This document shows positions 1,911-62,813 of a stretch of DNA of 64,000 nucleotides, in pieces. The notes under the pieces were generated by a model. The model worked only from the letters and a program-made list of their open reading frames with translations, was not told the DNA's origin and ran no database searches. Positions within the stretch are counted from its first letter, which is position 1. Each line of letters starts with the position of its first letter. The stretch covers positions 2,936 through 66,935 of the IMG/VR virus record IMGVR_UViG_2521172663_000002. One strand, 5' to 3'. A program made the translations under genes and the position numbers. This DNA is from a virus. Lineage: Duplodnaviria > Caudoviricetes.

Positions 1911-2255
1911 ATGACGCTTATCACCAGCACTATGCTGGCGGATATGCACGCGCGCCGTGAAAACGGTGAGAGCGTCGCAGATATCGCCGCCAGACACAAC
2001 GTCAAGCCAATGGCTGCATACCAGCGGCTGCGGCGCACATACGGCCTGCACAAGCAGCGCGCCTTCATCCCGGCCAACGATAACGCCCCAGACCGCACGA
2101 CGCACTTGGCGCCGCACAACGGCGGCTGCTCCACGCTTTCCGGCCTTTTGCCGGTTTCGCTGCCGCGCGTTCTTGCAGCCGCAAACGACAATGCTGACGA
2201 TCTGGCAGCCGGGCAGGCGGTCAACGACTACGCGCTGCGTGGGGTGGCGGCATGA
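1911..2255 (+). CDS. Cro-position HTH-like protein with two ANDN motifs
   Basis: GAGGAGA RBS; GESVADIAARHNVKPMAAYQRL HTH-like; first gene after early promoter; ends GVAA. Confidence 0.7.
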   Translation: MTLITSTMLADMHARRENGESVADIAARHNVKPMAAYQRLRRTYGLHKQRAFIPANDNAPDRTTHLAPHNGGCSTLSGLLPVSLPRVLAAANDNADDLAAGQAVNDYALRGVAA

Positions 2256-2533
2256 CTTGCGACTGCGATTTCTTCAATTTCGGCGATCCAGTCCGCAATC
2301 GACAAAACCCTCATCTCACTGGCGTCGTCATCGGCGATCGCAACTGGGGCAGCGAGTACCAGGTGCGCCTTGCTGACGGCGCGACGACGATCTGGTGGCA
2401 CGGCTTCGAGATCGAGCACGATCCGGATGGCGAACCGCCAGCGAAAGAGGACGACGACACCAACGTCGTCAAGGTGGACTTCACACAACGGCGCGCGATG
2501 ACCGCCGAAACAACAACGGAAGGAGCGGCGTGA
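2252..2533 (+). CDS. Hypothetical SH3/KOW-like phage protein
   Basis: FNFGDPVR..GVVI..YQVRL pattern; ATGA coupling. Confidence 0.65.
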   Translation: MTCDCDFFNFGDPVRNRQNPHLTGVVIGDRNWGSEYQVRLADGATTIWWHGFEIEHDPDGEPPAKEDDDTNVVKVDFTQRRAMTAETTTEGAA

Positions 2534-3645
2534 TGGGTGAGTTTAAGAAGGGTGATTTTGTGCGCGTTAAAGACAATCGCGGTGCGCCGATGGACTATAA
2601 GAATGGCGACGTTTGCCAAATCAGCGCCGTGCGCGACGATCTAGTCTTCTCGAATAAAAAGCCCGGAATGTTTGCCAAGCGCTTCGAACCATGGCAGCCG
2701 CGCGTCGGCGAGCGGGTGCGTTACGGCGGAAGGAGCACAGTCTACAGCGAGAAGGAGCTGATTGGCATTGAAGGGCAGGTCACCGGATTGGATGGCAATC
2801 TCGTCACTGTCAAATGGGACAAAGCGATTGTCGATGGCATCATGACCGGGGGTGCGAAATATATCGAGAACATCGAGCCCATCATCACAGCCGCCACGCC
2901 CGAACAGCCCGCCACTATCAAGATCGAGGCTGGCAAGTTCTACAAGACGCGCGACGGACGGAAAGCCGGGCCCGCCTTCATCTCTGGAAACATCGCTACG
3001 TTCGGCAACGCAAGCAACTATGCTAGCGCTGTTTGGTCGGATGACGGTCGATCGTCGAGCCGTGAGGACAAATTGAGCCTCAAAGACAACGATATTGTCG
3101 CCGAATGGATCGACGAGCCCGTCGCCAAGCCCAGCAACGACAACGCGAAGCCGAAGTTCAAGGTCGGCGACATCGTGAAGCGTTCGAATGGTTTCATGCC
3201 TCACCAGCGACTTCGCATCACCAAAGTCGAGGGCGAGCGTTATAGCGTCGAATGGCTGGTCGGCGGACCAGGTAGTATCGATACCTGGCGCGGGTATGAA
3301 TTCGAGCTGGTTACTCCGGCACCCACACCCACCTCCATCGTCGCCCTCATCGAGAGCGGCCAGCCCAAGCCATCGTCGACACCGCACGTCCACACTTCCG
3401 CCGGCGCGGCCGAGAAGGAAGCCAAGCGCCTTGCGGCCAAATACAAGGGCCAGCAGTTCGGCGTGTTCACGCTGACCACCACGCATGAAGAAGCCGCACC
3501 GGTCTATGACCACAAGTGGCAGAACATGGCGGCTCTGGGCCTCAAGATCGACGCGATCAAGGAACTGCGAGCTGTTGCCGGCCTTACTTTGAAGGGTGCC
3601 AAAGACGCCGTCGAGGCGTGGATCGAATACGAGAACGCCGCCTAA
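2533..3645 (+). CDS. Multi-KOW-repeat protein with C-terminal ribosomal L7/L12-CTD-like domain
   Basis: FKKGDFV, PRVGERV, FKVGDIV repeats; KIDAIKELRAVAGLTLKGAKDAVE; TGATG coupling. Confidence 0.75.
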   Translation: MGEFKKGDFVRVKDNRGAPMDYKNGDVCQISAVRDDLVFSNKKPGMFAKRFEPWQPRVGERVRYGGRSTVYSEKELIGIEGQVTGLDGNLVTVKWDKAIVDGIMTGGAKYIENIEPIITAATPEQPATIKIEAGKFYKTRDGRKAGPAFISGNIATFGNASNYASAVWSDDGRSSSREDKLSLKDNDIVAEWIDEPVAKPSNDNAKPKFKVGDIVKRSNGFMPHQRLRITKVEGERYSVEWLVGGPGSIDTWRGYEFELVTPAPTPTSIVALIESGQPKPSSTPHVHTSAGAAEKEAKRLAAKYKGQQFGVFTLTTTHEEAAPVYDHKWQNMAALGLKIDAIKELRAVAGLTLKGAKDAVEAWIEYENAA

Positions 3646-3705
3646 CCGGCGCCAGCGGCTGGCTACCAACCAGCCGCACTTCACCACATCATTGAGGAGA
3701 CAATT

Positions 3706-3897
3706 ATGAAGGATGCATTCGCAATCCTCGTCGCGACGCTCATCACGCTTGTGCCGCTCAGCGCTGCCGTCGCTGCTTGGGTGACGCACGTCTATGTGTG
3801 TATTCAGGCCAGTGCATGGATCCTGCTAGCCTTCGGGTGCGTCGTCGCGCCTGTCGGCATCATCCACGGCATCGGCGTTTGGTTGGGAGCGTTCTAA
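3706..3897 (+). CDS. Small membrane protein
   Basis: GAGGAGA RBS; two hydrophobic segments. Confidence 0.7.
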   Translation: MKDAFAILVATLITLVPLSAAVAAWVTHVYVCIQASAWILLAFGCVVAPVGIIHGIGVWLGAF

Positions 3898-5166: not shown

Positions 5167-5745
5167 ATGGCCAAGATTGGCGTCAGAGTTGAAGCGACCG
5201 AAGAGAACACCCAGCAGCGCGATTTCACCAACCTGCCGAATGGCGACTACCAGCTTGAGATCAGCGCGTCCGAGATCAAGGAAAAGAACAAGGATACCCG
5301 CGACCACGCCATCAATCTGAGCGTGACAATCGACGTCCTTGCTCCCGAGGAACTCAAAGGCCGCAAGGTCTTCAACAACTACAATCTGCAGCATCCAAAT
5401 TCTCAGACGCAGGAGATCGGCCAGCGCCAGTTTGCCTGCCTCCTGCGCTCACTCGGCCTCAATGAGGCACCTGAAGATTCTGATGAATTGCATTTCATCT
5501 CGTTCTTTGCCCGCATCGGAATGGGCAAGGACAGCAAGGAGAAAAACGCCGACGGTACCCCGAAGTACGCGGCCCGCAACGAGTTGAAGAAGTACTACTA
5601 CCCAGATGAGGGCAACCTGCCTGAGCCGAAGGTTGATGCTGCGCCAGCCGCAGCCAACGACAACCGCCGCACTGCCGCCAGCAACGACAACAAGCCCGCC
5701 GCTGCGGCCGCTGGTACGACGCGCCGGCCGTGGGGCAGCAAGTAA
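5167..5745 (+). CDS. DUF669-like ssDNA-binding protein
   Basis: LPNGDYQLEI, GRKVFNNYNL, disordered tail ending PW; follows Sak4. Confidence 0.75.
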   Translation: MAKIGVRVEATEENTQQRDFTNLPNGDYQLEISASEIKEKNKDTRDHAINLSVTIDVLAPEELKGRKVFNNYNLQHPNSQTQEIGQRQFACLLRSLGLNEAPEDSDELHFISFFARIGMGKDSKEKNADGTPKYAARNELKKYYYPDEGNLPEPKVDAAPAAANDNRRTAASNDNKPAAAAAGTTRRPWGSK

Positions 5746-6617: not shown

Positions 6618-7670
6618 ATGCACCTTGTCATCCACAAGGAAGACCTGACGCGTGCGCTTGCCGCCACGACGAAAGTCGTCGAGGCAAGATCCACCATTCA
6701 CATCCTGTCGAGCGTTCAAGTTGCTGCCGCAGGTGAAGGCCTTGCTATCACGGCAACCGACCTCGATATTATTGCCACCGCAGGCGTACCTGCTGAGGTC
6801 AGCAAGCCAGGCAACATCTGCGTCAGCGCGAAGCTGCTCAACGACATCGCGCGCAAGGCAACCGGCGACATCACCATGACGCTGGATGGTGACAAACTTC
6901 TGGTGAAGTCCGGACGGTCGCGCTTTTCTCTTGCCACGCTGTCAGCAGATGACTTCCCAACGCTCGGCGACGACAAGTTCGACGCTGAATTCGAGATTGA
7001 TCTGGCAGGACTGTTCGCGCCAGTCTCGTTCGCCATTTCGACCGAGGAAACTCGCTATTATCTAAACGGCGTGTTCTTCAAGGGCGGCAAGTCCGAAGCA
7101 GTTGCGACAGACGGCCACCGTCTCGGCCGCCACTACGGTCCAGAGCTGCCAGCCTTCGACGGCATTATCGTGCCGCGCAAGACCGTTGGCCTGTTGCCAA
7201 AAGGCAAGGTGCAGGTGGCTGTGAGCCAGCAGAAAATCCGCATTGTTTCGGACGATGTGCGCATTACCTCAAAGCTGATCGATGGCACGTTCCCAGATTA
7301 CGAACGCGTCATTCCGAAAAGCAACGAACGCGTCGTGACTGTCGATCGCGATGCACTGATGAAGGCGTCCGATCGTGTGTCGACGGTGTCGTCTGAGCGT
7401 GGCCGCGCCGTGAAGTTCAGCATCGCGCCCGGCAGCATCGCGCTCGCTGTTGCAGCTGGCGAGGCGTCGGCAAATGACGAAGTTGAGGCGGAATACAGCG
7501 GCGAGCCGATGGATATCGGTTTCAATGCGGCATACGTCCGCGACGTGCTGAATGTGCTTCCGTCTGGACCGGTCAAGCTGGCCTTGCAAGATGGTGGCAC
7601 GCCGGGACTGATTACGTCCGATGGCTTTGAGGGGCTGACTCTCGTTTGCATGCCTATGAGGGTCAGCTGA
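6618..7670 (+). CDS. dnaN: Phage-encoded DNA polymerase III beta sliding clamp
   Basis: ATDLD, STEETRYYLNG, ATDGHRL, SKLIDGTFPDYERVIP, IGFN, MPMRV. Confidence 0.95.
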   Translation: MHLVIHKEDLTRALAATTKVVEARSTIHILSSVQVAAAGEGLAITATDLDIIATAGVPAEVSKPGNICVSAKLLNDIARKATGDITMTLDGDKLLVKSGRSRFSLATLSADDFPTLGDDKFDAEFEIDLAGLFAPVSFAISTEETRYYLNGVFFKGGKSEAVATDGHRLGRHYGPELPAFDGIIVPRKTVGLLPKGKVQVAVSQQKIRIVSDDVRITSKLIDGTFPDYERVIPKSNERVVTVDRDALMKASDRVSTVSSERGRAVKFSIAPGSIALAVAAGEASANDEVEAEYSGEPMDIGFNAAYVRDVLNVLPSGPVKLALQDGGTPGLITSDGFEGLTLVCMPMRVS

Positions 7671-9233: not shown

Positions 9234-9352
9234 AATCTATAGCTCCCCATGTATGCGGATACGTAATGGATAGGATCGCTGATAGTTAATGAAATGACAA
9301 CATAAATTTGAAGGCGCCACCAACGCCTGAGCCACCACATGAGGAGACCACC

Positions 9353-9889
9353 ATGCCGCTTGTAGCACGCACGGCGCTTGTCGCTGCCAACGATAATAAT
9401 CCGCGCCGCCCCGAGTTCGACCGCAAGCTTTTGGCCTACGAGCCTGCTTTGCGACGACTGGCGCGCAAAATCACCAGGAACGAAGACGCCGCCGACGAAC
9501 TGTTTCAGTCGGCGATGGTCGTCATGTTGCGCCGGCATCGCGAATGCCGCCTTGAGACCTTCTGGACGTGGGCCACCCTTTGCGTTCGCGGAACGGCGCA
9601 GGAATTCGTTCGCACCAATTCCACCAAATCGCGGTCCGCTGAGGTCTGCAGTCTCTCGGCGTTCGACGAGATGCCGGGCGCTACCGATCCGCATCAGGAG
9701 GATGGCACCGACCTATCGCGTGTTGTTTCCCTGCTCGAAGGCCGCAATGGCGCGATGCTAATGCGCCGAGCGATGGGCGAGACGCTGGAAGCCATTGGCA
9801 ACGACCACGGCCTCACGAAAGAACGTGTTCGCCAGGTTGTCATCAAGGAGCGGGCGAGGGTGCTCGGGCTGCTGCGGGAGGCGGCTTGA
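9353..9889 (+). CDS. Sigma-70/ECF-like transcription factor
   Basis: Region 2-like LRRLARKIT..AADELFQ; region 4-like TLEAIG..GLTKERVRQ. Confidence 0.75.
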   Translation: MPLVARTALVAANDNNPRRPEFDRKLLAYEPALRRLARKITRNEDAADELFQSAMVVMLRRHRECRLETFWTWATLCVRGTAQEFVRTNSTKSRSAEVCSLSAFDEMPGATDPHQEDGTDLSRVVSLLEGRNGAMLMRRAMGETLEAIGNDHGLTKERVRQVVIKERARVLGLLREAA

Positions 9890-11616
9890 TGGCACTACGG
9901 TATTACCAGCGTGAGGCTGTCGACGCGACGTTCGATTACTGGCGCGAAGAGGCCGGACATCCGCTCATCGATATGGCTACGGGCACAGGCAAAAGCATGA
10001 CATTGGCCACGCTTTTCCATGAGATGATCACTGGCTGGCCTGACATGCGCCTCTTGAATGCCGTTCACGTTCAAGAACTCGTAGAGTCAAACTTCAAGGA
10101 AATGATCGGCATTGCGCCGTTCGCCCCGGTCGGCCTTTACGCTGCTGCGTTGGGTCGCCGCGACGCGCGCGCGCAGATCCTCTTTGCCCAACTGCAAACG
10201 GTCTGGAACAAGGCGAAAGAAATTGGGCACGTTGACGTGTTGGCGATCGACGAAGTGCACCTTGTGCCCGACGACGAGAACACAATGTACCGCGTCTTTA
10301 TCCAGGCGCTTTTGGCCATCAACCCGGAAATGAAAATTGTTGGTCTTTCGGCCACCCTTTACCGACTCGATAGTGGTCGGTTGGATGAGGGTGAGGATCG
10401 GCTATTTGATCGAACGGTTTACAGCTACGGCATTCGCGAGGGCATCGATGATGGCTATTTGACGCCGATCACTTCGAAACCAACGTCTACGAAGCAGGAC
10501 ACGTCTACCGTTCCCTTGCGAGGAAATGATCTGGCGAAAGGCGCCCTTCAAAAAGCAGTCGACCACGACTGGCTCAACAAGCGTATCGTCGAGGAGGTTT
10601 TTGATACAGAGCCTCACCGCAAAACGGCGCTATTCTTCTGCGCGGGAGAAAAGCACGCGACGAACATGCGCGACGTCATACGGTCGGCGGGAAGATCCTG
10701 CGAAATCATCATGGGTACAACACCAAAAGGTGAGCGTCGAAAGATTATCGAGGCATACAAGCGCGGCGAGATTTGGGGCATTTGCAATGACAATGTGATG
10801 TCAACGGGCACTAACGTTCCTCGTATCGATCTCATCGTCGACGCGGCCAAGACAAAGTCGGCAAGCCGATATGTGCAGCGCGTGGGTCGAGGTACTCGTG
10901 TGATTTATCCGCGTGGATTTGACCCTGAAGCAGCGAGTGCAGAAGAGCGCCGTGCCGCAATATTTGGGGGCGATAAACCAAACTGCCGATACATGGACTT
11001 TGCGGGAAACGTCGGCGAACACGGGCCTGTGGACATGATTGTTCCAACTAAGCCGTCAAAGGGCGACGGCACGGCGCCAATTAAGGTCTGCCCTCAGTGC
11101 GAGGAGCAACTTCACGCGTCAATCCGCGTCTGCTGGTGCTGTGGTCATGAGTTTGTATTCGACGAGACACCAAAGCTGCAATCGAAGCCCACCGATGCGC
11201 CCATTATATCGACCCAGGCACCAGAACCCCGCACCGTCACGTCGCGCAGCTTCTATTACCATGAGGGCAAGGGGGATAAACCGCCGTCGGTGAAGGTCAG
11301 CTACATGTCCGGCATGACGGCGATCAATGAGTGGATTTGCCCGCAACATAGCGGATTCCCGAAGTCAAAGGCCGACCGCTACTGGCGCGCGCATGGCGGC
11401 AAAATGCCGTTTCCAAAGACCGTTCTGGAATGGATCGAGCGTCAGTCAGAACTGGCCGAAACGGTCGAGATCACAGTGAAGCCGCGCCAGAAGTATTGGG
11501 ATGTTGTGGGCCACATGGTTGGTGCTGCGAACGACAATCACGTGTCACCGGCCAATGACAATGCGCCGGAAGCAGAGGATTGGCGGGTGTTAGTTGAAGA
11601 TGATATTCCATTCTAG
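9886..11616 (+). CDS. SF2 DEAD/H helicase with Zn finger (RadD/YejH-like)
   Basis: LRYYQ, ATGTGKS, DEVH, LSAT, QRVGRGTR, CPQC..CWCC. Confidence 0.9.
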   Translation: MMALRYYQREAVDATFDYWREEAGHPLIDMATGTGKSMTLATLFHEMITGWPDMRLLNAVHVQELVESNFKEMIGIAPFAPVGLYAAALGRRDARAQILFAQLQTVWNKAKEIGHVDVLAIDEVHLVPDDENTMYRVFIQALLAINPEMKIVGLSATLYRLDSGRLDEGEDRLFDRTVYSYGIREGIDDGYLTPITSKPTSTKQDTSTVPLRGNDLAKGALQKAVDHDWLNKRIVEEVFDTEPHRKTALFFCAGEKHATNMRDVIRSAGRSCEIIMGTTPKGERRKIIEAYKRGEIWGICNDNVMSTGTNVPRIDLIVDAAKTKSASRYVQRVGRGTRVIYPRGFDPEAASAEERRAAIFGGDKPNCRYMDFAGNVGEHGPVDMIVPTKPSKGDGTAPIKVCPQCEEQLHASIRVCWCCGHEFVFDETPKLQSKPTDAPIISTQAPEPRTVTSRSFYYHEGKGDKPPSVKVSYMSGMTAINEWICPQHSGFPKSKADRYWRAHGGKMPFPKTVLEWIERQSELAETVEITVKPRQKYWDVVGHMVGAANDNHVSPANDNAPEAEDWRVLVEDDIPF

Positions 11617-12200: not shown

Positions 12201-12653
12201 ATGAGCAGAACGACGTACAGGCGCGCCTGCGCTCTGGCAGAACACTACTTGGCAATTGACCGGCGCGAGATATGGCTCGACGAGAACGACCCACACCTTC
12301 CATGGGATAAGGTGACGAGCGTAAAGGCTGGCGGTGGGTATCGTCTCAATGGCCCAACTGGCGTTCGCATCGAGGCCAACGACCCAGCCGGCCTGTCATT
12401 CTTGTGGCTCGTGGACTTTGAGTCCCGCGACGCAAATGGGTCCAGCATCAACCAATTTGATCGTGTCGCAATGCTGAACATGGCCAGAAGACTACCGCCG
12501 CATGTCCGCGAGAAGTTTGCACAATTTCTGACCGACGAAGTTCTGCCGGCTGTTCAGCAGCGGACTGCTGAGTTTGAGGAACAGATGAAGAAGCAGCGAG
12601 ATAGTCTCGAAATCCTGCAGTCGATCATCCTCAACGTCGGAGCCGCAGCATGA
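12201..12653 (+). CDS. Hypothetical protein
   Basis: GAGGAGA RBS; ends GAAA. Confidence 0.7.
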   Translation: MSRTTYRRACALAEHYLAIDRREIWLDENDPHLPWDKVTSVKAGGGYRLNGPTGVRIEANDPAGLSFLWLVDFESRDANGSSINQFDRVAMLNMARRLPPHVREKFAQFLTDEVLPAVQQRTAEFEEQMKKQRDSLEILQSIILNVGAAA

Positions 12654-13171
12654 CCAAACCAGCCAACGACAACTATTTGGCTGCCGACGTCGCCAACCTT
12701 GAAGCGCTTTTCGCCGACATGCTGGCCGCTTATCCCGAGCTCGAAGCCGACGAAGAGCTTCGCGCTGATATGCTGGAAGGCGAGACCAACTTCCACGCCG
12801 TCCTGACGCGTCTCGTCAACGGCGAGCGCGACGCCGACAGTCTGGCAAAGGCCGTAGCAGGGCGCATCTCAGATCTGCAAGCACGCAAGTCGCGCGCTGA
12901 GCGCCGCAAGGAAGCAATGCGCAGTCTGATGTTCAAATTGCTGAAAGCTGCCGGCGTGCCGCGCGTACCTCTGGCTGAGGCTACGATCTCGATCGGCAGG
13001 AAGGCTGCATCTGTTGAGATCGTCGACGAGGCTCTGTTGCCGAAGGCCTACGTTCGTGTTTCGACGTCGCCGGACAAGACCGCCATCAAGGAAGCTCTGC
13101 AGGCTGGCAAGAAGGTCCGTGGTGCAAAGATGGGCGAGGCGGGTGAGCTGTTGTCGGTGAGGGTGGCTTAA
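12650..13171 (+). CDS. Siphovirus Gp157 family protein
   Basis: Coiled coil then VEIVDEALLP..PDKTAIKEALQAGKKVRGA. Confidence 0.85.
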   Translation: MTKPANDNYLAADVANLEALFADMLAAYPELEADEELRADMLEGETNFHAVLTRLVNGERDADSLAKAVAGRISDLQARKSRAERRKEAMRSLMFKLLKAAGVPRVPLAEATISIGRKAASVEIVDEALLPKAYVRVSTSPDKTAIKEALQAGKKVRGAKMGEAGELLSVRVA

Positions 13172-14363: not shown

Positions 14364-15686
14364 GTGAGCATCACCTCGATGCACGACGGAAGAGTCGTGC
14401 TGCATCAAAACGATTGCCGCGACGTGTTGCGCGGTCTTGCCGACAGCTCGATCGACAGCGTCGTTACGGACCCTCCTTATGCGCTGGTCTCTATCCAGAA
14501 GCGTTTCGGAAAGCCGGGCTCCGTCCCGGCCAAGGACGTTTATGGTCGCGGAGCAGCCGGCTTTATGGGCAAGCAGTGGGACACCGGAGAAGTAGCATTC
14601 TCCGAAGAGTTCTGGGCCGAAGTGCTGCGCGTCTTGAAGCCGGGTGGCCATGTCGTCGCGTTCTCTGGCACGCGCACCTATCACCGCATGGCCGTTGCTA
14701 TCGAAGATGCTGGATTAGAGATCCGTGATCAACTGGGCTGGGTGTTTGGTTCTGGCTTCCCGAAGTCGCACAACCAGCATGGCGATTGGGAGGGTTGGGG
14801 TACCGCGCTCAAGCCAGCATGGGAGCCTATTGCTCTGGTGCGCAAACCTTTGACTGGCACCGTCGCTGCTAACCTTGCTGAGTGGGGCGTGGGTGCGATC
14901 AATGTGGATGGCTGCAGGGTGGAGACGGATGAAGAACTTCGCGATGGAGCTGGAAAACTTTGGTCGCATTATCGAGAGGGTGAGCCGAGCGCATCACGCA
15001 TTTATACCGACGTTGGCGGTACCAGCTTTTCGCTGGTGCCGGGCATCCGTGGCGGCGATCCACGAGGCCGCTGGCCCGCCAACCTTATCCACGACGGCAG
15101 CGAAGAAGTGCTGTCGGCGTTCCCAGACGCAAAGGGCCAGCAGGGCTATGTTGGGCCGAAACACGGCGAGCGGCCAAGCAAGGGTATCTATGGTGACTTT
15201 GGCGCGAGGCCTGATAGCCATCCTCGCGTCGAGGCGGAGACGTCAGCCGCCCGCTTCTTCTACTGCGCCAAGGCGAGTCGCGCGGACCGTGATGCTGGTC
15301 TGGATCACCTGCCGAAGAAAGCAGGCGGCATGGTGTCAAACACCAGCGGTCAGCACATGACCCGTCGCGATGAAGGCTACAAGCCTGAACCGCGCGCCAA
15401 CACTCACCCAACCGTTAAGCCAACAACCCTCATGCAGTGGCTTTGCCGCCTTATCACGCCTCCCGGCGGCGTAATTCTTGATCCTTTCATGGGCTCAGGA
15501 AGCACAGGCAAGGCGGCTGTTCTCGAGGGCTTTCAGTTCATCGGCTGCGAGCGTGAGGACGAATACATGCCGATCGCTACGGCCCGGATTGCGTGGGCTA
15601 TCGGTGTGGTGAGCAAGGATGACGAACTCGCTGCGGTACCGGTGAATGACAACCGTCCTGCTGACTTGTTTTCGAAGGCAGCGTAA
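14364..15686 (+). CDS. N6A/N4C DNA methyltransferase (beta class)
   Basis: DPPY precedes HPTVKP and DPFMGSGST. Confidence 0.92.
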   Translation: MSITSMHDGRVVLHQNDCRDVLRGLADSSIDSVVTDPPYALVSIQKRFGKPGSVPAKDVYGRGAAGFMGKQWDTGEVAFSEEFWAEVLRVLKPGGHVVAFSGTRTYHRMAVAIEDAGLEIRDQLGWVFGSGFPKSHNQHGDWEGWGTALKPAWEPIALVRKPLTGTVAANLAEWGVGAINVDGCRVETDEELRDGAGKLWSHYREGEPSASRIYTDVGGTSFSLVPGIRGGDPRGRWPANLIHDGSEEVLSAFPDAKGQQGYVGPKHGERPSKGIYGDFGARPDSHPRVEAETSAARFFYCAKASRADRDAGLDHLPKKAGGMVSNTSGQHMTRRDEGYKPEPRANTHPTVKPTTLMQWLCRLITPPGGVILDPFMGSGSTGKAAVLEGFQFIGCEREDEYMPIATARIAWAIGVVSKDDELAAVPVNDNRPADLFSKAA

Positions 15687-16504
15687 TGGCTAAGCTCACC
15701 AAAGCTCAAGCAAAGGCCCATGCGCAGGCCTGCGACATCCTCACCAAAGCCGTGCTGACCGAAGACGACAAGGACTTCGTCCTCAAGAACTGGAACGAGG
15801 GCGCGAACCACGTTAACGGCGCTGCTGGCGCGTTTTTCACACCGTACGATATGGCGTTCGATTTCACCATCGATGCCATCGGGCAAGGCGGATACGGCGG
15901 GCGGATCATCGATCTGTGCGCTGGCATCGGCATGCTGTCCTACGCGTGCTGGCACCGAAGCCATCATAAGGCTCGCATCACCTGCGTGGAGCGGAATCCC
16001 GACTATCTCGCGGTTGGTCAGAAGATACTACCGGAGGCGGAGTGGATTCTCGCTGACGTGCTGGACGTGCTGGACATGGGGCTGGGCAGGTTTGACGTTG
16101 CCATCAGCAATCCGCCCTTTGGTAAGATCAAACGCGACGGCGGCGCTCCTCGCTACACAGGAGCGGAGTTCGAATTCCATGTGATCGATATAGCCGCTCA
16201 TCTGGCTGACTCTGGCGCGTTCATCGTGCCGCAGATGTCCGCTGGCTTCAACTACAGCGGTCGGCCTTCCTACGAGCAACAGAAGGACGGCAAGGCGGTC
16301 AAATTTCAAGAGCTCACCGGCCTTCACTTCGAGGCTGGCTGCGGGATCGACACGGCTTTCTACATCAACGATTGGAAAGGTGTTTCGCCCATGTGCGAGA
16401 TCGTGTGCGTCGAATTTGAGCGACCGGACGAAGCGTGTCTCATTGAGGCGGCAAATGACAATGTGTCGCCGGTTCAGGCGGATTTGTTTGGGGTGGCAGC
16501 ATGA
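15686..16504 (+). CDS. Amino-methyltransferase (gamma-order motifs)
   Basis: GAFFTP, DLCAGIG, NPPF. Confidence 0.85.
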   Translation: MAKLTKAQAKAHAQACDILTKAVLTEDDKDFVLKNWNEGANHVNGAAGAFFTPYDMAFDFTIDAIGQGGYGGRIIDLCAGIGMLSYACWHRSHHKARITCVERNPDYLAVGQKILPEAEWILADVLDVLDMGLGRFDVAISNPPFGKIKRDGGAPRYTGAEFEFHVIDIAAHLADSGAFIVPQMSAGFNYSGRPSYEQQKDGKAVKFQELTGLHFEAGCGIDTAFYINDWKGVSPMCEIVCVEFERPDEACLIEAANDNVSPVQADLFGVAA

Positions 16505-18955: not shown

Positions 18956-21181
18956 TTGCAAACGCCGCTTGAACTAGCGCAACATTACGTCGGCCAAGGC
19001 TGGCCGGTATTTCCCTGCCGTTCGCACGCCGAGGAGCACGTCGACCAGGCAACCGGCGAGATCATCACTCTCGGAGAAAAGACGCCTTTGACGCCCAATG
19101 GCTTCAAAGGCGCAACGCGCTTTCCGCGCATTATTGAAAGATGGTGGTCGGACTGGCCAAATGCCGCCGTTGGCCTGCCCACGGGCGAGAAGACAGGCTT
19201 CTTCGCGCTCGACATCGACAACAAGCCGGGCGGCGCCAATGGCTTCGACTGGCTGTCGGAGATGGAAGCCGAGCATGGTCCGCTGCCAGACACAGCACGC
19301 GTGACGAGCCCGAACGGCGGGCTGCATATCTACTTCAAGTACGTCGTGGGCACGCGCAACCGCGGCGCTCTGGGCGCTGGCGTCGATATCCGCTCTGAAG
19401 GTGGATACGTGCTCGCCGCCGGCAGCACGATGGCCAATGGCCGCTCCTACAAGTGGGACACTGACACCCGCGAGATAGCCGACGCGCCGGCATGGTTGTT
19501 GGACCTGCTGCTGCCAAAGTCGGCGCCGGCCCATACGCAGTACAGCCTGTCGGCTGCGACGAACAACGCTTACGTCGATGCCGCCGTCGACCGTGAACTG
19601 GCGGACCTTGCTGGTGCGCCGATGGGCAGCCGTAACAACGCACTGAACGATGCTGCTTTTTCCATCGGCACTATCGTCGGAGCGGGTGCGCTCGGTGAAG
19701 CGGAGGCGCGCGCCTTGCTTCAGGATGTGGCTCGTGGCTGGGGCAGGGACTGGTCACGTTGCTGCAAGACGATCGAGAACGGCCTCAAGGCTGGCATCCA
19801 AAACCCTCGCCATATTCCAGAGCCTGACTTCCCGGCGCACGACAACACGCGTCTGGTGGACATCACGCGGATGATCCAGCGCGGTCTCGAGAAAGGCAGG
19901 CTGCGCGAGCAAGCGGCAAGGGTCGATGCAGACGTTACTGTACAGGAAGAAGTGCTGCACAACGGCACGGATATTCCCGAGCGGGAATCTGCATCACCAG
20001 ACGGTGATATGGAGCCAGCAAACGATAACACACCGCAATCGCCAATCACGGCCACTGCGTTCAAGTGGATAGACCCAAAGACATTGCCGCGCCGTGAGTT
20101 CGCTTACGGATCGCACTTCATTCGCAAATACGTATCGGTCACGGTATCTCCTGGCGGCCTTGGTAAGACGTCGGCCAGCATCGCTGAGGGTCTTGCCATG
20201 GTGTCGGGTAGGGCACTGCTCGGCATCAAGCCACCCAAGCGGCTGCGCACATGGATATTCAATGCCGAAGACCCGCGCGACGAGATGGAGCGGCGCATCA
20301 TGGCTGCTTGCATCCACTACAAGCTGAAGCCCGCCGATCTCGAGGGACATCTGTTCCTGGACAGTGGTCGCGAACAGGAGCTGGTCGTCGCCATCGACGA
20401 CAAGAAGGCAGGCGTGCGCATCCAGCAGCCGATTGTCGAAGCGGTGGTTGAGCAGATCGAGCGCAACGGTATTGACGTGATGATTGTCGACCCGTTCGTT
20501 TCCACGCATGGCGTCAACGAGAACGACAACGGCGCGATCGACAAGGTCGCTAAGCTTTGGGCGCAGATCGCCGACTACACCAACTGCTCGATCGATATCG
20601 TGCACCATCTGCGCAAGGTGGCGGACCGAGAGGCCACCGTCGAAGACGCTCGAGGTGCAGTATCGCTGATCGGCGCGGCGCGCTCGGTGCGAGTCCTCAA
20701 CCGCATGTCGGAAGAGCAGGCAGGCGAGGCGGGTATCAACAAGGAGGACCGCTTCGGGTACTTCTACACCACCTACGGAAAGTCGAACCTAACGCCGTTG
20801 TCGCACAAGGCGGAGTGGCGCCATCTGGTGTCGACGCCGCTTGGAAACGGGACAGGTCTTGCCCAGCCGCAAGACTTCGCGCCGGTAGTTACAGAGTGGC
20901 ATTGGCCGAGCGCCGAGGATGTGGCGGGAGACCTCACAGACGACCAGCGTGCGTCCATTCTGGCGGCTGTGAGCGCGTCCGACTACAAGAAGTCACCGAA
21001 GGCCAAGAACTGGGTTGGAGCCGCTGTGGCGTACGCTGTGGGGCTGGATTTGGACGACAACGTGCAGCGCAAGCGCGCGTCCAGCCTTGTGAGTGCGCTG
21101 ATGCGTGAAGGAGCGCTTGTCGAGCGAGAGGAGCGAGATCCGGTCAGGCGCGAGTTGGCGGTGTTTGTTAGGGCGGCTTGA
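18956..21181 (+). CDS. Bifunctional primase/polymerase fused to AAA_25 (RepA-type) helicase
   Basis: WPVFPC, ALDID, GGLHIYF, DIRSEGGYV; SPGGLGKT, IVDP, HHLRK. Confidence 0.9.
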   Translation: MQTPLELAQHYVGQGWPVFPCRSHAEEHVDQATGEIITLGEKTPLTPNGFKGATRFPRIIERWWSDWPNAAVGLPTGEKTGFFALDIDNKPGGANGFDWLSEMEAEHGPLPDTARVTSPNGGLHIYFKYVVGTRNRGALGAGVDIRSEGGYVLAAGSTMANGRSYKWDTDTREIADAPAWLLDLLLPKSAPAHTQYSLSAATNNAYVDAAVDRELADLAGAPMGSRNNALNDAAFSIGTIVGAGALGEAEARALLQDVARGWGRDWSRCCKTIENGLKAGIQNPRHIPEPDFPAHDNTRLVDITRMIQRGLEKGRLREQAARVDADVTVQEEVLHNGTDIPERESASPDGDMEPANDNTPQSPITATAFKWIDPKTLPRREFAYGSHFIRKYVSVTVSPGGLGKTSASIAEGLAMVSGRALLGIKPPKRLRTWIFNAEDPRDEMERRIMAACIHYKLKPADLEGHLFLDSGREQELVVAIDDKKAGVRIQQPIVEAVVEQIERNGIDVMIVDPFVSTHGVNENDNGAIDKVAKLWAQIADYTNCSIDIVHHLRKVADREATVEDARGAVSLIGAARSVRVLNRMSEEQAGEAGINKEDRFGYFYTTYGKSNLTPLSHKAEWRHLVSTPLGNGTGLAQPQDFAPVVTEWHWPSAEDVAGDLTDDQRASILAAVSASDYKKSPKAKNWVGAAVAYAVGLDLDDNVQRKRASSLVSALMREGALVEREERDPVRRELAVFVRAA

Positions 21182-24901: not shown

Positions 24902-25031
24902 AAAACGACCGGCGTTCAGCCGGTCTTTTCTTTTGGCCAAAAAATATTTCACAAATTGACTACCCGTTTTCACTCCTATCTCGGAAAGTATGTGTGTCGC
25001 CACCACGACAACACCACACGAGGAGGCCAGC

Positions 25032-25496
25032 ATGCAGCAAACCACCCGCATCAATGGCAAGCGCGTCATCATCCGTACTTCGCCAAAAGGCACTGTCACT
25101 TTCGCAGACGCACCCATCAAGGAAAGCGAAGGGCAGGCGGCTCAGGTCCGCGCCCTGCGGTCGCTGCCGGAGTACGGCCGCCAGTTCCTGCTCGCGGGTG
25201 ACATGAACAGTGCCAAGCGCGGTCCACGTGCCCAGGCTGACGCTATCGCGACTGGCATGACGCCTGGCGAAGCTGACCTGCGGATCTACCTCAAGGGCGG
25301 TGTGCTGCGGATGATCGAGAACAAGGTCGGCAAAGGTCGGCTGTCTCCGGCACAGGTCGCGCGCCACGCATCACTCGTCAGACTGGGGCACCCGGTTGAA
25401 GTGGTGCGCTTCACGTCCACAGGTGAAGCGGCAAGCAAGGCCGTATCGCTGGTGCGCCAGTGGCTTGCTGACAACGACAACACCAAGCAGCAGTAA
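25032..25496 (+). CDS. VRR-NUC domain nuclease
   Basis: GMTPGEADL..MIENK..GRLSPAQ. Confidence 0.8.
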   Translation: MQQTTRINGKRVIIRTSPKGTVTFADAPIKESEGQAAQVRALRSLPEYGRQFLLAGDMNSAKRGPRAQADAIATGMTPGEADLRIYLKGGVLRMIENKVGKGRLSPAQVARHASLVRLGHPVEVVRFTSTGEAASKAVSLVRQWLADNDNTKQQ

Positions 25497-58353: not shown

Positions 58354-59019
58354 ATGCTCAGACGATTCCTGCGTGCATTATTGCGGCGTTCGCCGACAGC
58401 ATTCCTCGTTGCTTTATTCCTCGTCGTCGCCGCTACCTCTGCGGCCGCGTACGCGCTCCTTCCTCCGCCCAATTTGCCGGCGACCGAGAGCGCCACCGTC
58501 AAAATCCAAGTCAACGACGCCCACGGCTCCGGCGTCCACATAGGCGACGGCTTTATCGTCACTGCTGCACACGTCGTCGGCGACGCTAAAGAGGTCCAGA
58601 TGAAGGCGAAGGACGCCGAGTTCCGCAAGGCGGACGTCCTTTGGGTCAATAAGGCCAACGACATCGCACTGCTGCGCACGTCGTCGGACGGCTTAGGGAT
58701 TGCTCACCTTTCCTGCCGCTCGGTGAATGCTGGCGATCCTATCGTTGCCTACGGCAATCCCCTGCAAATCGAATTCGTTGCCGCGTACGGCAAGATTGCC
58801 GGCGAGCCTCGCAAAACAGGTCCGTGGAACGCTGTCTATGTGACCGACATCACGACCGTGATGGGGCAATCAGGCGGGCCTGTCTTTACGGACAAGGGCG
58901 ACCTGATCGGCATCACCGTCGGCGTCATGGCGGCGCCTATTGGCTTCTCAGGCTCGCTGGTTGGATATGGGTATGTCGTGCCTTCGACTGCTGTTTGTGA
59001 GTTGTTGGCGCGGAAGTAA
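58354..59019 (+). CDS. Exported trypsin-like serine protease
   Basis: Signal/TM; TAAHV, DIALL, GQSGGP triad. Confidence 0.9.
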   Translation: MLRRFLRALLRRSPTAFLVALFLVVAATSAAAYALLPPPNLPATESATVKIQVNDAHGSGVHIGDGFIVTAAHVVGDAKEVQMKAKDAEFRKADVLWVNKANDIALLRTSSDGLGIAHLSCRSVNAGDPIVAYGNPLQIEFVAAYGKIAGEPRKTGPWNAVYVTDITTVMGQSGGPVFTDKGDLIGITVGVMAAPIGFSGSLVGYGYVVPSTAVCELLARK

Positions 59020-59071: not shown

Positions 59072-60322
59072 ATGCTACCTACCGAAGAACTCCGCCGAAG
59101 AGTCGACGCTTACCGTGAACACGGCACGCTTATCAAAGCAGCTGCTGCCCTTGGCATCGGCAAGTCTGCGCTTGCTGAGAGCGTGAAGCGCGCTGCTGAG
59201 GCTGGCATGCTTGGCACTGAGCCTGTCTTGCCAGGATTCCGCATCAGCCGCATCAGCAACACGCCGAGCGGCACGTTCATCCAGCAAGCGCCCGAGCGTG
59301 GTGAGCGTTTCGAAGTGCCAGCTGGCCATGTTGTCAAAGGCGTGTCTGCCCTCGTCGATGCTAACGGGCGAGTTATCCAACAATGGCAGAAGACGGCGGT
59401 GGAGGCAGAAGGCCAGCTTGCCGCCTTTCAAGCAATGGTCGACGGCCTCAAGGAAGATCTTCCCCGTATCACGATCATGCCCGCGCCGCAGCACGTCGAA
59501 GAAGATTTGCTCAACCAGTTCGTTGTGACAGACAGCCATTTCGGAATGCTCGCTCACCGCGAGGAGACAGGCGCTGACTACGATCTTCGTCTGGCCGAGC
59601 AGTTGCTGCTAGATTGGTTTGCCGCCGCCGTGGCAGGTGCTCCGCAGGCGCACACAGCCGTTCTTGCACAGCTCGGAGACCTTTTACACCACGACGCCCT
59701 CGAGAGCGTCACGCCTGCACATAAGCACGTCCTCGATGCCGATTCCCGCCTTCATAAGGTGGTCCGCGTCGTCATCAGAACACTACGGCGCGTCGTCGAC
59801 ATGCTGCTACAGAAGCACAAGCACGTTCACGTCGTGATGGCGTCTGGCAATCACGATCCTGCCTCATCTGTTTGGGTTCGAGAGCTTCTTGCGACGATTT
59901 ATGAGAACGAGCCGCGCGTGACGGTCGATACCAGCCCGATGCTGTATTATGCCTACAAGTGGGGAGACACAGCGCTGTTCTATCACCACGGCCATAAGCG
60001 CGGCGTGGCCCAGGTCGACGCTACGCTCGCAGGCACGTTCCGCGAGATGTTCGGCGCCTCGAAATACGCCTTCGCTCATGTGGGCCACCTGCACAGCGAT
60101 GAAGGCCGCAAGTCGGCGCTGATGTATGTCGAGCGCCATGAGACGCTTGCCGCTCCTGATGCTTACGCTGCTGGCGGTGGATGGCTGTCCGGTCGATCTG
60201 CCAAGGTCATCACGTATTCGCGCCGATATGGCGAAGTGGCTCGGGCGACGTTGCGGCCGGAGATGGTTGCTGGTCGGTATTCGGCTGCGAATGACAATGA
60301 GCCGGTGAAGGCGGCGGCGTGA
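59072..60322 (+). CDS. Calcineurin-like metallophosphoesterase with N-terminal HTH
   Basis: DSH, GDLLH, GNHD, HHGH, GHLH; ends AANDNEPVKAAA. Confidence 0.8.
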   Translation: MLPTEELRRRVDAYREHGTLIKAAAALGIGKSALAESVKRAAEAGMLGTEPVLPGFRISRISNTPSGTFIQQAPERGERFEVPAGHVVKGVSALVDANGRVIQQWQKTAVEAEGQLAAFQAMVDGLKEDLPRITIMPAPQHVEEDLLNQFVVTDSHFGMLAHREETGADYDLRLAEQLLLDWFAAAVAGAPQAHTAVLAQLGDLLHHDALESVTPAHKHVLDADSRLHKVVRVVIRTLRRVVDMLLQKHKHVHVVMASGNHDPASSVWVRELLATIYENEPRVTVDTSPMLYYAYKWGDTALFYHHGHKRGVAQVDATLAGTFREMFGASKYAFAHVGHLHSDEGRKSALMYVERHETLAAPDAYAAGGGWLSGRSAKVITYSRRYGEVARATLRPEMVAGRYSAANDNEPVKAAA

Positions 60323-60326
60323 CGCC

Positions 60327-60509: not shown

Positions 60510-60683
60510 AATGGCAATAAGGACTCCCTACGGGCCGAAGGTCAATTGCCAATGGGGGATAACCACCGAAACAACCGGAAAATTGGGATTTCTTGAGCAT
60601 TTATACAGTGCCTTCCCCAGCAATCCCCAACCGACGCCAATCACCAATTGGCATCGAATCACCGCACCACTGAGGAGACAGAA

Positions 60684-61310
60684 ATGGAAATTGTAGGAAC
60701 ACTTCGAAATGCGCAGAGATTGTCGAAGAGCCAAGATCATCGCGCACCTTGTCTGTATGGGCAAGTTTACGGCGATACCAAAGGTCGGTTCCTTGATGGC
60801 GAATGGATCACCACCCGCACAATTATGAGCGAGGAAGGCGATGAGTTCCGGACGCGCTTTAGCGCTTACAAGGTGGAAACGTGGGCGGAAGGTCACGCAT
60901 CTGTCGCAGCCAACGACAACAAACCTCACAACCACGCCGCAGCCATCAACCTATTTGCAGCCGACTGCCACGCAGCGAGCCGCAGAGCAGGCTGGTACAC
61001 AGACCTCGCCACAGGCAAGGCGCTGGACCGCAACGTGCCTGAGATGCTTTGCCTGATCCACAGCGAGATCAGCGAAGCGATGGAAGGCTATCGCAAGTCG
61101 AAGCCTGGCAAGGTTATGATGGACGACAAGCTGCCGCACCGGCCGATGGCTGAGGTCGAGCTTGCCGACGCGATGATCCGGATCGGCGATCTGGCATCGT
61201 TCCTTGGGTACGACCTTGGTGGCGCCATCGTCGAGAAGATGGCATTCAATGCCAACCGACCTGACCATAAGATTGAGAACCGGCTTATGGCTGGTGGGAA
61301 GGCGTTTTGA
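60684..61310 (+). CDS. MazG-like NTP pyrophosphohydrolase with extra N-terminal domain
   Basis: LIHSEISEAMEGYRK..EVELADAMIRIGD..EKMAFNANR. Confidence 0.85.
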   Translation: MEIVGTLRNAQRLSKSQDHRAPCLYGQVYGDTKGRFLDGEWITTRTIMSEEGDEFRTRFSAYKVETWAEGHASVAANDNKPHNHAAAINLFAADCHAASRRAGWYTDLATGKALDRNVPEMLCLIHSEISEAMEGYRKSKPGKVMMDDKLPHRPMAEVELADAMIRIGDLASFLGYDLGGAIVEKMAFNANRPDHKIENRLMAGGKAF

Positions 61311-61975
61311 CCATGGATAAAAGCGCCCTACCGACATGGCATCACCGTTACGAGCCAGCCGACAAGTACGTTGCGGCTAATGACAACGAGCGCGGCCAGT
61401 ACATAGGCCTGACACGCAACCAGCCTGCCGAACCGCCCCGCACAGGTTCGTTCATGCAGACATACACCGGCCGTCAGTATTGGCCGATGGACCCGCACCC
61501 GCGCGAAATCTACATTGAGGACATCGCGCACTCGCTGAGCCTGCAATGCCGCTACGCAGGTCACTGCATCAAATTCTACAGCGTCGCCGAGCACTCTGTC
61601 CTCATCGCACGTCACCTCGCGGCGATACGCGCGCCTGAGGTCGCTTTGGCTGGCCTTCTGCATGATGCGCCTGAGGCTTACTGCGTGGACATTCCGCGCC
61701 CGCTCAAGCCGTACCTGACGAACTACCGTGCGATCGAGCAAGACAACTGGCTGGCTATCGCGGCGCGGTTTGGTTTGCCGAAGGAGTTGCCGCGCGAGGT
61801 TCATGACGCGGACAACCGCATCATCGCCGACGAGCTAGTCAACCTGCGCGAGATGCCGTGGCACGCCAAGCATGACAAGCCGCTGGGCGTGAAGCTGCGA
61901 TACTGGTCGCCGGAGGAGGCTGAAACGGAGTTCCTGGCAACGTTTGAAGCGCTGATGGCGGGGAGGGCGGCATGA
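61307..61975 (+). CDS. HD-domain 5'-deoxynucleotidase-like (YfbR/YfdR)
   Basis: IEDIAHSLS..RYAGH..YSVAEHS..LLHDAPEAY. Confidence 0.9.
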   Translation: MTMDKSALPTWHHRYEPADKYVAANDNERGQYIGLTRNQPAEPPRTGSFMQTYTGRQYWPMDPHPREIYIEDIAHSLSLQCRYAGHCIKFYSVAEHSVLIARHLAAIRAPEVALAGLLHDAPEAYCVDIPRPLKPYLTNYRAIEQDNWLAIAARFGLPKELPREVHDADNRIIADELVNLREMPWHAKHDKPLGVKLRYWSPEEAETEFLATFEALMAGRAA

Positions 61976-62250
61976 CCATCAAACCCGGCGACGAAGTCGT
62001 CTGCATCGACGACACCACCCTTCCAGAGCAATACCTCGGCATCCGTGCCGGGGAGGTTTACCGCGCAACGTGGGTAGGCATGTGCCGCACATACCTCGGT
62101 GGCGACTATGCGGGCATCAGGCTGGCAGCAGTGAACCGCGGCATCTGCCCGCAATTCGGCGAAGAGGATCCACCCTTTGCGGCGCGGCGGTTCAGGCCGG
62201 TTGTGAACCGTTCGGTGGAGAACAAGAAAAATATTGAGGAGACGGTATGA
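61972..62250 (+). CDS. Hypothetical phage protein
   Basis: GDEVVCID..FAARRFRP. Confidence 0.7.
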   Translation: MTIKPGDEVVCIDDTTLPEQYLGIRAGEVYRATWVGMCRTYLGGDYAGIRLAAVNRGICPQFGEEDPPFAARRFRPVVNRSVENKKNIEETV

Positions 62251-62813
62251 GCGACCTGATCAACCGAATGAACGCGGTAATCGCGAAATCGTCAATTGTT
62301 TACGAGGCTGCCATGGAAGACTTTCGTAGAAACTTCACGCTCGGCGAAACCATCACATCCAAAGACACCGGCTGCCTTACGGCTGTACCGGCGAATGATA
62401 ACGCTGTGGTTCCGGTAGAGCTCGAACCTCTGGCCGAAGCGATCGGTAAACTTCCATCGTCAAATCCGAAGCGCGCATTCGGAGTGAAGAAGCCGTCGGC
62501 GCAATTCGTGCCACCGGTGGCAATCATCGAGGAAAGCGTCGTGATGGCTCTCGGCGCTGCGAAATACGGTGCATTCAATTGGCAGGATGATCCGGTCGAC
62601 GCCACCACGTATTACAGCGCGGCGATCCGCCATTTGCTGCAATGGTTCTCGGGGCAGGACATCGATTCGGAGAGTGGCGCGTCTCACTTGGCGCATGTTC
62701 GGGCCTGCATGGGGATTCTTCTGGATGCAAAGGCGGCAGGCACCTTGATTGACGACCGGCCAAAGTGTGCGTCGGCAAGTGAAGCTATTGAGCGGTTGAA
62801 GGTGGCGGCTTGA
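62247..62813 (+). CDS. dATP/dGTP diphosphohydrolase domain (DUF5664)
   Basis: GAAKYGAFNW..AAIRHL..DSESGASHLAH. Confidence 0.88.
   Translation: MSDLINRMNAVIAKSSIVYEAAMEDFRRNFTLGETITSKDTGCLTAVPANDNAVVPVELEPLAEAIGKLPSSNPKRAFGVKKPSAQFVPPVAIIEESVVMALGAAKYGAFNWQDDPVDATTYYSAAIRHLLQWFSGQDIDSESGASHLAHVRACMGILLDAKAAGTLIDDRPKCASASEAIERLKVAA

Follow-up and report, generated by a model that had tools for sequence, protein, structure and literature searches.

Copies of the tmRNA tag head ANDN across the proteins of a phage most likely of Agrobacterium

The phage and its ANDN sites

We describe here a window of 64,000 nucleotides, by which we mean the whole stretch of DNA that was analysed; it covers bases 2936-66935 of a phage record (IMG/VR record IMGVR_UViG_2521172663_000002) that is complete, measures 66,935 bp and has terminal repeats. 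Its G+C content is about 56%, and it contains an integrase, an early replication and recombination block and a siphovirus-type structural block. The subject of this article is a tetrapeptide, ANDN, which recurs in the proteins of this phage and which is also found at the head of the tag encoded by the transfer-messenger RNA (tmRNA) of its presumed host. The nearest named relatives are Sinorhizobium phages AP-16-3 and NV1.1.1, Rhizobium phages RHph_TM3_3_14B and RHph_X2_25, and the classic phage 16-3. Since Agrobacterium rosae NCPPB 1650 harbours the closest genomic copy, a prophage whose helicase is 93% identical, and since many Agrobacterium genomes hold homologues of the phrog_704 exonuclease of the phage at 92-99% identity, the host is, judged by these sequence relationships, most likely an Agrobacterium.

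The original prediction, made from the letters of the window alone, listed 16 in-frame copies of ANDN. Six-frame translation placed all of them exactly, every one on the plus strand and in a stop-to-stop frame of at least 133 amino acids; the minus strand and the off-frames of the window gave no ANDN. The variants SNDN (3133 and 5680), VNDN (15642) and DNDN (25470) also lie where they had been reported. The residue in front of ANDN had been described as nearly always Ala or Pro, and it is so in all 16 cases (Ala in 10, Pro in 6). Likewise, the claim that selection acts on the peptide agrees with the spelling, GCN-AAY-GAY-AAY with every wobble base varying, so that all four Ala codons and both codons of Asn and of Asp are seen. 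The first 2,935 bases of the record, upstream of the window, add three further copies in two small minus-strand genes, which brings the whole genome to 19 ANDN in 15 proteins. Ala or Pro precedes 17 of these 19, and the list of pentapeptides is headed by AANDN (10) and PANDN (7).

A scan that considers only a word chosen beforehand can easily mislead. We therefore scored all tetrapeptides in 343 six-frame segments of at least 80 amino acids (52,254 amino acids in total). ANDN was the top outlier, with 19 copies observed against 0.216 expected (Poisson 1.5e-30), and the next non-overlapping tetrapeptide, ASSS, reached 1.2e-7. The rough estimate of well under one chance copy per genome agrees with this expectation.

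The sites are described below in the order of the map; all are on the plus strand. A small protein adjoining the repressors (open reading frame 1872/1911-2255, ending ...GVAA) carries PANDN at 2073-2084 and AANDN at 2181-2192, the latter 20 residues ahead of the -VAA C-terminus; among its orthologues both ANDN and an -AA end are present in 7 of 7. The SNDN variant at 3133-3144, within KPSNDNAKP, belongs to a 416-residue protein (2395-3645) that ends in -NAA. In the DUF669/SSB-like protein (5167-5745) AANDN at 5653-5664 lies in a Pro/Ala-rich C-terminal linker and is followed five residues downstream by SNDN (5680-5691); this protein has the head only and no -AA end. Its own end (5719-5742) is a tip of the RRPWGSK type, conserved in most of 120 homologues, which may be a further docking motif. 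A phage DnaN sliding clamp with all three Pfam domains is encoded at 6618-7670.

The sigma-like protein (9308-9889, ending -EAA) has AANDN at 9386-9397, ahead of sigma-70 region 2. The helicase (9886-11616) has two copies in its tail, past the helicase domains: AANDN at 11527-11538 and PANDN at 11551-11562, the second 17 residues before the C-terminus ...EDDIPF. This helicase tip (11596-11613; ...DDEVPF in relatives) stands just after the two ANDN heads, and its acidic-then-hydrophobic character resembles that of the C-terminal tip of bacterial SSB. This suggests a second copied docking motif. In the Gp157-family protein (12650-13171) PANDN at 12662-12673 occupies residues 5-8, and hence this copy is of an N-terminal class.

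Two methyltransferase genes follow. The N6/N4 methyltransferase (14364-15686) has the VNDN variant in its tail at 15642-15653, after which the protein runs RPADLFSKAA to the stop; its orthologues have ANDN in 8 of 10 and an -AA end in 9 of 10. The second methyltransferase (15686-16504) has AANDN at 16451-16462, which opens an 18-residue tail, AANDNVSPVQADLFGVAA. Both tails (15654-15683 and 16463-16501) contain a clamp-like motif of the ADLF type (RPADLF, QADLF) between the xNDN head and the -AA end; in the methyltransferase tails of relatives LSLFG or NLFG takes its place. The primase (18956-21181, ending -RAA) carries PANDN at 20018-20029 in the linker between its Prim-Pol and AAA_25 domains, a gapped region of the alignment, and the motif is found there only in this phage and in the A. 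rosae prophage.

Further along, DNDN at 25470-25481 is five residues ahead of the stop of the reading frame 24990-25496, and the phrog_36072 protein (25396-26442, ending -ASS) has AANDN at 25645-25656 and at 26398-26409, the latter 10 residues before its C-terminus. Just 3' of this gene the phage bears a tRNA-Met with a CAT anticodon (26583-26659). The tape measure protein (37915-40281), with PANDN at 40108-40119 near its C-terminus, is the sole structural carrier in this phage. The phrog_704 exonuclease (58940/59072-60322) has AANDN at 60287-60298, which opens a complete 12-residue ssrA-like tail, AANDNEPVKAAA, directly before the stop. In many Agrobacterium genomes public sources name the prophage homologues of this exonuclease (59072-60322; P0122-P0240) 'oxidoreductase', and PHROGs has the family as a DNA repair exonuclease; the former is probably a propagated misnomer. 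Then come a 220-residue protein (60648-61310) with AANDN at 60909-60920, a 222-residue protein (61307-61975, ending -RAA) with AANDN near its N-terminus at 61376-61387, and a protein (62247-62813, ending -VAA) with PANDN at 62391-62402, ahead of its dATP/dGTP diphosphohydrolase domain. The operon of ANDN-marked nucleotide-metabolism genes is headed by a gene for a peptidase of the Pfam family Trypsin_2 (58354-59019). Of the phages compared, the five named ANDN-rich relatives have an orthologue of it, and Rhizobium phage RHph_X2_26 has none.

The annotations first given to the carriers were upheld for the DUF669/SSB-like, sigma-70 region 2, SF2 helicase, Gp157, methyltransferase, Prim-Pol/AAA_25 primase and tape measure proteins; the exonuclease and the dATP/dGTP diphosphohydrolase are additions to that list. 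The description of the carriers as an early proteome holds approximately, in that ANDN is found in 14 of 60 non-structural genes and in 1 of 32 structural and lysis genes (Fisher 0.016). It is not the whole story, since the portal protein is ANDN-tagged in relatives.

Within the proteins, the motifs fall outside the Pfam and PHROG domain envelopes. The helicase has them at residues 548 and 556 of 576, the SSB-like protein at 163 of 192, the second methyltransferase at 256 of 272, the exonuclease at 450 of 460 and the Gp157 protein at residue 5, and the primase, as already said, in an interdomain linker. Alignments of orthologues put the motifs in gapped, Pro/Ala-rich stretches. For statistics we pooled 149 motifs from nine members of the 16-3 group, both phages and prophages; in the flanks of these motifs order-promoting residues are depleted (0.238 against 0.317 at random positions, p 2e-17). 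An AlphaFold2 model of the exonuclease gives the ANDN tail (residues 401-416) a predicted local distance difference test (pLDDT) score below 50. Judging from these data the motif appears to lie where an ssrA-like degron has to lie, in exposed and unstructured segments.

The host tag, Ala-Ala ends and conservation

The tmRNA tag of A. rosae is ANDNNAKEYALAA, and sspB lies directly downstream of the tmRNA gene. The hosts of two other prophages of the group have the tags ANDNNAKEYALAA and ANDNYAPVAQAA, and SspB was found in one of these two. In two host-type genomes (G001:C18:155877-156840 and G002:C155:26504-27449) sspB is immediately beside the tmRNA gene, so that tag and adaptor form one locus. 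The host SspB has solved homologues, including SspB of Caulobacter (structures 2nys, 2qas and 2qaz). The head in the phage proteins is identical to the presumed adaptor-binding head of the host tag. The tmRNA itself adds one Ala ahead of the encoded tag; tagged proteins hence carry Ala before ANDN, as do 82 of the 149 phage motifs, and another 42 have Pro at this position. The motif of the phage is not a true tmRNA tag, because the phage genes themselves encode it, in frame and in varied codons, and it is not added co-translationally. ARAGORN found no tmRNA gene in the window, and the SspB profile PF04386, used with E up to 1, found no SspB encoded by the phage.

The tag has a second important part, its Ala-Ala end, and phage proteins ending in -AA are also in excess. 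Our counts of such ends come from a crude codon-score gene caller, checked against deposited annotation for AP-16-3 only, and that for the present phage varies with the gene set (17 of 90 or 16 of 92). Where about 1.0-1.2 proteins ending in -AA would be expected, the nine ANDN-rich genomes have 13-24 each (p 3e-11 to 2e-24); counted on its deposited annotation, AP-16-3 has 12 of 80 (p 9e-10). The phages RHph_X2_26, RHph_Y55, Brucella phage Tb and Agrobacterium phage 7-7-1 have 1-4 such proteins (of 51-117), which is not significant, and on 400 kb of the A. rosae chromosome 16 of 393 proteins end so. The two marks also occur together: in this phage 8 proteins have both, 7 have ANDN only, 9 have -AA only and 66 have neither (Fisher 0.001). 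A free C-terminal Ala-Ala thus accompanies ANDN in a subset, 8 of the 15 ANDN proteins, and not in the SSB-like protein or the helicase.

The distance between head and end is also informative. From motif to stop there are 5-13 residues in 45 of the 149 cases, where position alone would predict 4.2%. Spacings of 7-10 residues are the most frequent (37 of 149), and native tags have 8-9; about 70% of motifs are outside the range of 5-13. Where no more than 13 residues follow ANDN (n=46), the protein ends in AA in 27 cases and in VA in 5.

The clearest picture of conservation is given by the exonuclease. ANDN is present in all 120 best homologues and lies within 13 residues of the end in 119 of them; of these 119 tails, 64 end in VA and 47 in AA. 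In 60 distinct tails with seven residues after ANDN the pentapeptide AANDN has zero entropy and 58 finish with Ala, whereas the stretch of five residues that separates AANDN from the terminal [A/V]A varies (1.65-2.67 bits). Hence conservation of this tail is bipartite, with a fixed head, a fixed end and a variable middle. The exonuclease orthologue of RHph_X2_26, which is free of ANDN, stops exactly where the others append the tail. The SSB-like protein has ANDN in 9 of 9 orthologues of the group, and of its 120 best homologues 115, some with as little as about 47% identity, have the copy in the linker; the names of these homologues include Agrobacterium, Rhizobium, Ensifer, Brucella, Hyphomonas and others, and four of the five that lack the exact motif have near-variants of it. 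In the helicase cluster 9 of 10 members have ANDN.

The load is a property of the whole group. Each of the nine phages and prophages compared has 11-20 motifs. The corresponding DNA pattern occurs 18-23 times in AP-16-3, NV1.1.1, TM3_3_14B, 16-3 and X2_25, and the reversed-pattern control occurs 0-1 times; ANDN is the top tetrapeptide in all four relatives scanned (AP-16-3, NV1.1.1, TM3_3_14B and 16-3; X2_25 was left out). Three prophages reached through their helicases, in A. rosae, in a proteobacterial metagenome-assembled genome (MAG) and in a Bradyrhizobiaceae MAG, have 11-19 motifs each, although the helicase of the last is only 44% identical. RHph_X2_26 has no ANDN despite many shared orthologues. 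None is present either in RHph_Y55, Agrobacterium phage 7-7-1, PBC5, RcapMu, Lo5R7ANS or lambda; Brucella phage Tb has one pattern match and none in called genes, and phiLM21 and Caulobacter phage DMCA have two each. Orthologues gain and lose the motif: 40 clusters have ANDN in at least one of five phages, and the X2_26 orthologues never have it.

A comparison with the host background, as suggested in the original prediction, shows no enrichment there: 393 called genes on 400 kb of the A. rosae chromosome contain 1 ANDN, with 0.72 expected. Of the 49 pattern matches in the whole A. rosae genome the 57-kb prophage contributes 20 and the tmRNA gene one, which leaves 28 for some 5.4 Mb; the reversed control gives 15. 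Chance or composition as a source of ANDN is ruled out by the scan of all tetrapeptides, the reversed-pattern controls and this host background.

We also searched IMG/VR with a single 15-base spelling of AANDN as a seed, and with a matched seed for AANDE. A second ANDN was found in 17 of the 80 stretches that the AANDN seed returned, with up to 6 in 10 kb and many complete tails, and several of the stretches have no detectable homology to this phage. Counts in whole records were 15 and 16 in two distant members of the group and 2-6 in others, with a reversed control of 0 throughout. Since ANDN clusters in viral contigs that have no detectable homology to this phage, its reader is likely to be on the host side, in so far as clustering can tell. 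The proviruses G014 and G005 share just 12 and 14 of the 92 proteins of this phage (tblastn). Both encode a small protein of 67-68 amino acids (G014:C1:1171-1377 and G005:C1:41294-41497) that starts Met-x-Ala-Ala-Asn-Asp-Asn, an N-terminal version of the head.

The idea that phages match the tag of their own host, ANDN or ANDE, found no support in this search: a second ANDE was seen in only 1 of 80 AANDE-seeded stretches. As the seed had a single, arbitrarily chosen codon spelling and the contigs came from unknown hosts, this is weak evidence that such clustering is absent. A seven-residue pattern of the enterobacterial head occurred in only 8 IMG/VR stretches, once in each, and lambda has neither ANDE nor ANDN. 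Clustering is thus confined to ANDN and has, as far as this rough test goes, no counterpart for the tag of the E. coli type.

Possible readers of the motif

In our opinion the most probable explanation, to which we give a probability of about 0.6, is that [A/P]ANDN copies the head of the host tmRNA tag and that the proteins so marked would be handed to SspB and ClpXP of the host for turnover of early DNA enzymes. Mimicry of the tag as such is strongly supported by the sequence comparisons. The reading of the original prediction stood in every sequence-level test run (match to the tag, -AA ends, spacing, bipartite conservation, placement and host background); its physical part, namely binding by SspB, degradation by ClpXP and a benefit to the phage, is what we infer from them.

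The proposed course of events is as follows. The phage sets the ANDN head in exposed, poorly ordered tails and linkers, and in about a third of cases the protein also finishes with a free Ala-Ala or Val-Ala, spaced as in the native tag, which makes a hard-coded ssrA-like tag of 12-14 residues. SspB of the host, which in alphaproteobacteria reportedly reads the N-terminal part of the tag, would dock on the head and tether the protein to ClpX, and ClpX would engage the -AA end and feed the protein to ClpP. Proteins with a complete tag (the exonuclease, the methyltransferases, the small protein beside the repressors, the nucleotide hydrolases and the portal of relatives) would be short-lived unless their tail is buried in a complex. 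Those with a remote -AA end could be delivered by tethering, and those with the head only, such as the SSB-like protein and the helicase, may bind SspB without being efficient substrates. The likely benefit would be host-run turnover of dangerous early DNA enzymes after the decision between lysis and lysogeny and upon leaky expression in lysogens.

Individual steps of this scheme have precedents. In sigma-AntA, a natural sigma factor of Streptomyces, a C-terminal Ala-Ala is necessary and sufficient for decay by ClpXP (PMC7142297), and a screen of C-terminal degrons was dominated by AA and LVA ends (PMC10862746). In Caulobacter an ssrA-tagged protein decays more slowly upon deletion of sspB (PMC9393093). 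The engineered DAS+4 tag keeps the SspB-binding head, its decay depends on SspB, and its head is separate from the ClpX end (PMC9382460).

Several observations weigh against our explanation. The two most conserved carriers mostly lack an -AA end (1 of 9 for the SSB-like protein, 1 of 10 for the helicase), and thus ANDN is not always part of a degron. Pro at -1, in the 42 motifs mentioned above, is never producible by tmRNA tagging, and Pro at +2 stands in 59 of 149 motifs where native tags have Ala; hence the reader could differ from SspB, or the affinity may be tuned. The provirus G014, with 6 ANDN, has no enrichment of -AA ends (2 of 65 proteins). Phages of the same host genera do without the motif load (PBC5 and 7-7-1 with 0, phiLM21 with 2), and the matched scan for the enterobacterial head showed no clustering (1 of 80 loci). 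The Bradyrhizobiaceae MAG gave no SspB; this genome is incomplete, and only about 60 bases separate its tmRNA gene from the end of the stretch, which is probably a contig end. The fold behind the disorder of the exonuclease tail is only a moderate model (mean pLDDT 63).

The load itself may be read in another way. Fifteen of about 90 proteins with ANDN and 16-17 ending in -AA is a very high load, and the most conserved carriers, the SSB-like protein and the helicase with its two heads, have the head only and are expected to be abundant. The heads and -AA ends might therefore act as a decoy that saturates SspB and ClpXP and so stabilises other clients (labile antitoxins, cell-cycle or stress regulators, phage proteins) or blunts the proteolytic branch of trans-translation, with turnover of the carriers being incidental. 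We consider this rather unlikely. A single abundant decoy would suffice; instead, 40 protein clusters have the motif, gained here and lost there among orthologues, which suggests a benefit to each protein, and complete tags at the native spacing are what a real substrate needs. A related and similarly doubtful possibility is a distributed takeover, in which hard-coded heads and ends flood SspB and ClpX and jam or redirect ClpXP, or recruit ClpX as a remodelling motor; some copies would then sit on abundant non-degradable carriers, for example the SSB-like protein and the helicase. If this were true, antitoxins or cell-cycle regulators would be stabilised, resulting in anti-defence or host arrest, or ClpX would be brought to replication complexes. 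The reader may also be something other than SspB, either a host hub or the phage clamp, to which [A/P]ANDNxP docks, the likeness to the tag being coincidental or only partly relevant. The Pro preferences at -1 and +2, which are missing from native tags, speak for such a reader, as do the DNA-related activities of most carriers, the presence of phage dnaN in all 9 heavily loaded genomes and in none of 7 others, and the further linear motifs in the tails (the clamp-like ADLF and the end resembling an SSB tip). It leaves unexplained, however, the co-enrichment of -AA, the spacing at tag length and the bipartite conservation, and the portal, the tape measure protein and nucleotide hydrolases carry ANDN too, so that we would give it little credence. 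As to the clamp in particular, ANDN is polar, unlike the hydrophobic clamp-binding peptide of the QL[S/D]LF type, and the candidate is weakened by near-complete records that lack dnaN and have clusters of ANDN, namely G014 (99% complete, 6 motifs) and G006 (100%, 3 motifs).

Two other explanations appear very improbable to us. One is that ANDN is a cleavage or processing site, for instance for the trypsin-like peptidase of the phage, and the restriction of that peptidase to ANDN-rich phages among those compared is in its favour. A cleavage site, however, needs neither a fixed distance to the C-terminus nor a terminal Ala-Ala, trimming 7-10 residues off many enzymes has no obvious use, and ANDN clusters in contigs unrelated to this phage. 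The other, hardly more credible, is a signal at the level of nucleic acid or translation: a DNA site, an mRNA element or a codon triplet that pauses ribosomes. Indeed no copy departs from the coding strand, and the spelling AAC-GAC-AAC is seen most often. Against this, the third position of every codon is variable (Ala is spelled in all four ways, Asn and Asp in both), the window holds no copy that is off frame or antisense, the reversed-pattern control gives 0-1 per phage, and the preference for Ala or Pro at -1 and the C-terminal geometry are features of a peptide. A dispersed DNA repeat or binding site is ruled out by the varying wobble positions and the restriction of copies to the coding frame.

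Returning to delivery to SspB and ClpXP, we looked at the lifestyle of the phages concerned. A tyrosine-integrase match is present in all six named ANDN-rich phage records and also in four phages that have the -AA bias only (by the same crude gene caller, DMCA 14 of 84, PBC5 8 of 58, phiLM21 6 of 69 and Lo5R7ANS 5 of 61). No such match was found in X2_26, Y55, Tb and 7-7-1, the four phages with neither mark. RcapMu, a transposable phage without a tyrosine-integrase match, is borderline with 3 of 47, and lambda, again by the crude caller, has 7 of 62. This association fits the clearing of lytic proteins in cells that become or remain lysogens, and it is only suggestive because the lineages are few and related. 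The broader -AA bias in other integrase-bearing phages suggests that temperate phages may in general be linked to ClpXP through lysogeny.

Comparison with known systems

No published description of ANDN or of tag mimicry in phage proteomes was found in the literature searched, most subscription journals and supplements lying outside it. If our explanation is correct, this would be, within that literature, the first reported bacterial virus that copies the tmRNA quality-control tag across its proteome. It would mean that host machinery alone allows a temperate phage to limit the lifetime of its nucleases, methyltransferases, replication proteins and unassembled portal subunits. Work on adaptor-mediated delivery would further gain dozens of naturally occurring bipartite degrons that differ in head, spacer and end, and the predictions can be addressed in tractable systems such as phage 16-3 with Sinorhizobium meliloti and the Agrobacterium prophages.

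Several phage proteins are tied to host proteases: lambda O and MuA to ClpX, T4 PinA and T7 Gp4.5 against Lon. They, too, couple phage development to AAA+ proteases of the host. These are, however, single proteins with idiosyncratic signals, none of which is known to copy the tmRNA tag or to extend over a proteome. A better parallel to the spread of ANDN may be found among viruses of eukaryotes, which mimic host docking sites by short linear motifs. There, likewise, a host motif of 4-5 residues arises convergently in disordered regions and turns over fast among orthologues; unlike there, the host is here a bacterium and the copied motif is a degradation tag of quality control. If true, ours would be a rare bacterial example of a mimicry that is well known from eukaryotic viruses.

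The native alphaproteobacterial ssrA tag (ANDNNAKEYALAA and ANDNYAPVAQAA above, and the Caulobacter tag in PMC9393093) resembles the phage version in its [A]ANDN head, its AA or VA end and its variable middle, and its length of 12-14 residues is matched by about 30% of the phage motifs. The differences are that the phage version is encoded in the genes, that its head is often tens to hundreds of residues away from the end, or alone, that Pro is frequent at -1 and +2, and that reading by SspB and ClpX is presumed for the phage. In sigma-AntA of Streptomyces the -AA end is likewise hard-coded, conserved in orthologues and a signal for ClpXP (PMC7142297). That protein is a single cellular regulator without an adaptor head, whereas the phages have the end in a whole proteome, 16-24 proteins per genome, together with the ANDN head. 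The DAS+4 tag (PMC9382460) is modular in a similar way, with an SspB head, a tunable ClpX end and a spacer, and the phage tails vary both the spacer and the end (AA, VA, CA, NA); that tag, however, is synthetic and derived from the tag of E. coli, and the phage version is natural and of the alphaproteobacterial type. Placed among these systems, the finding is one of mimicry of a short linear motif and of a degron, which makes use of an adaptor-protease pathway that is already known.

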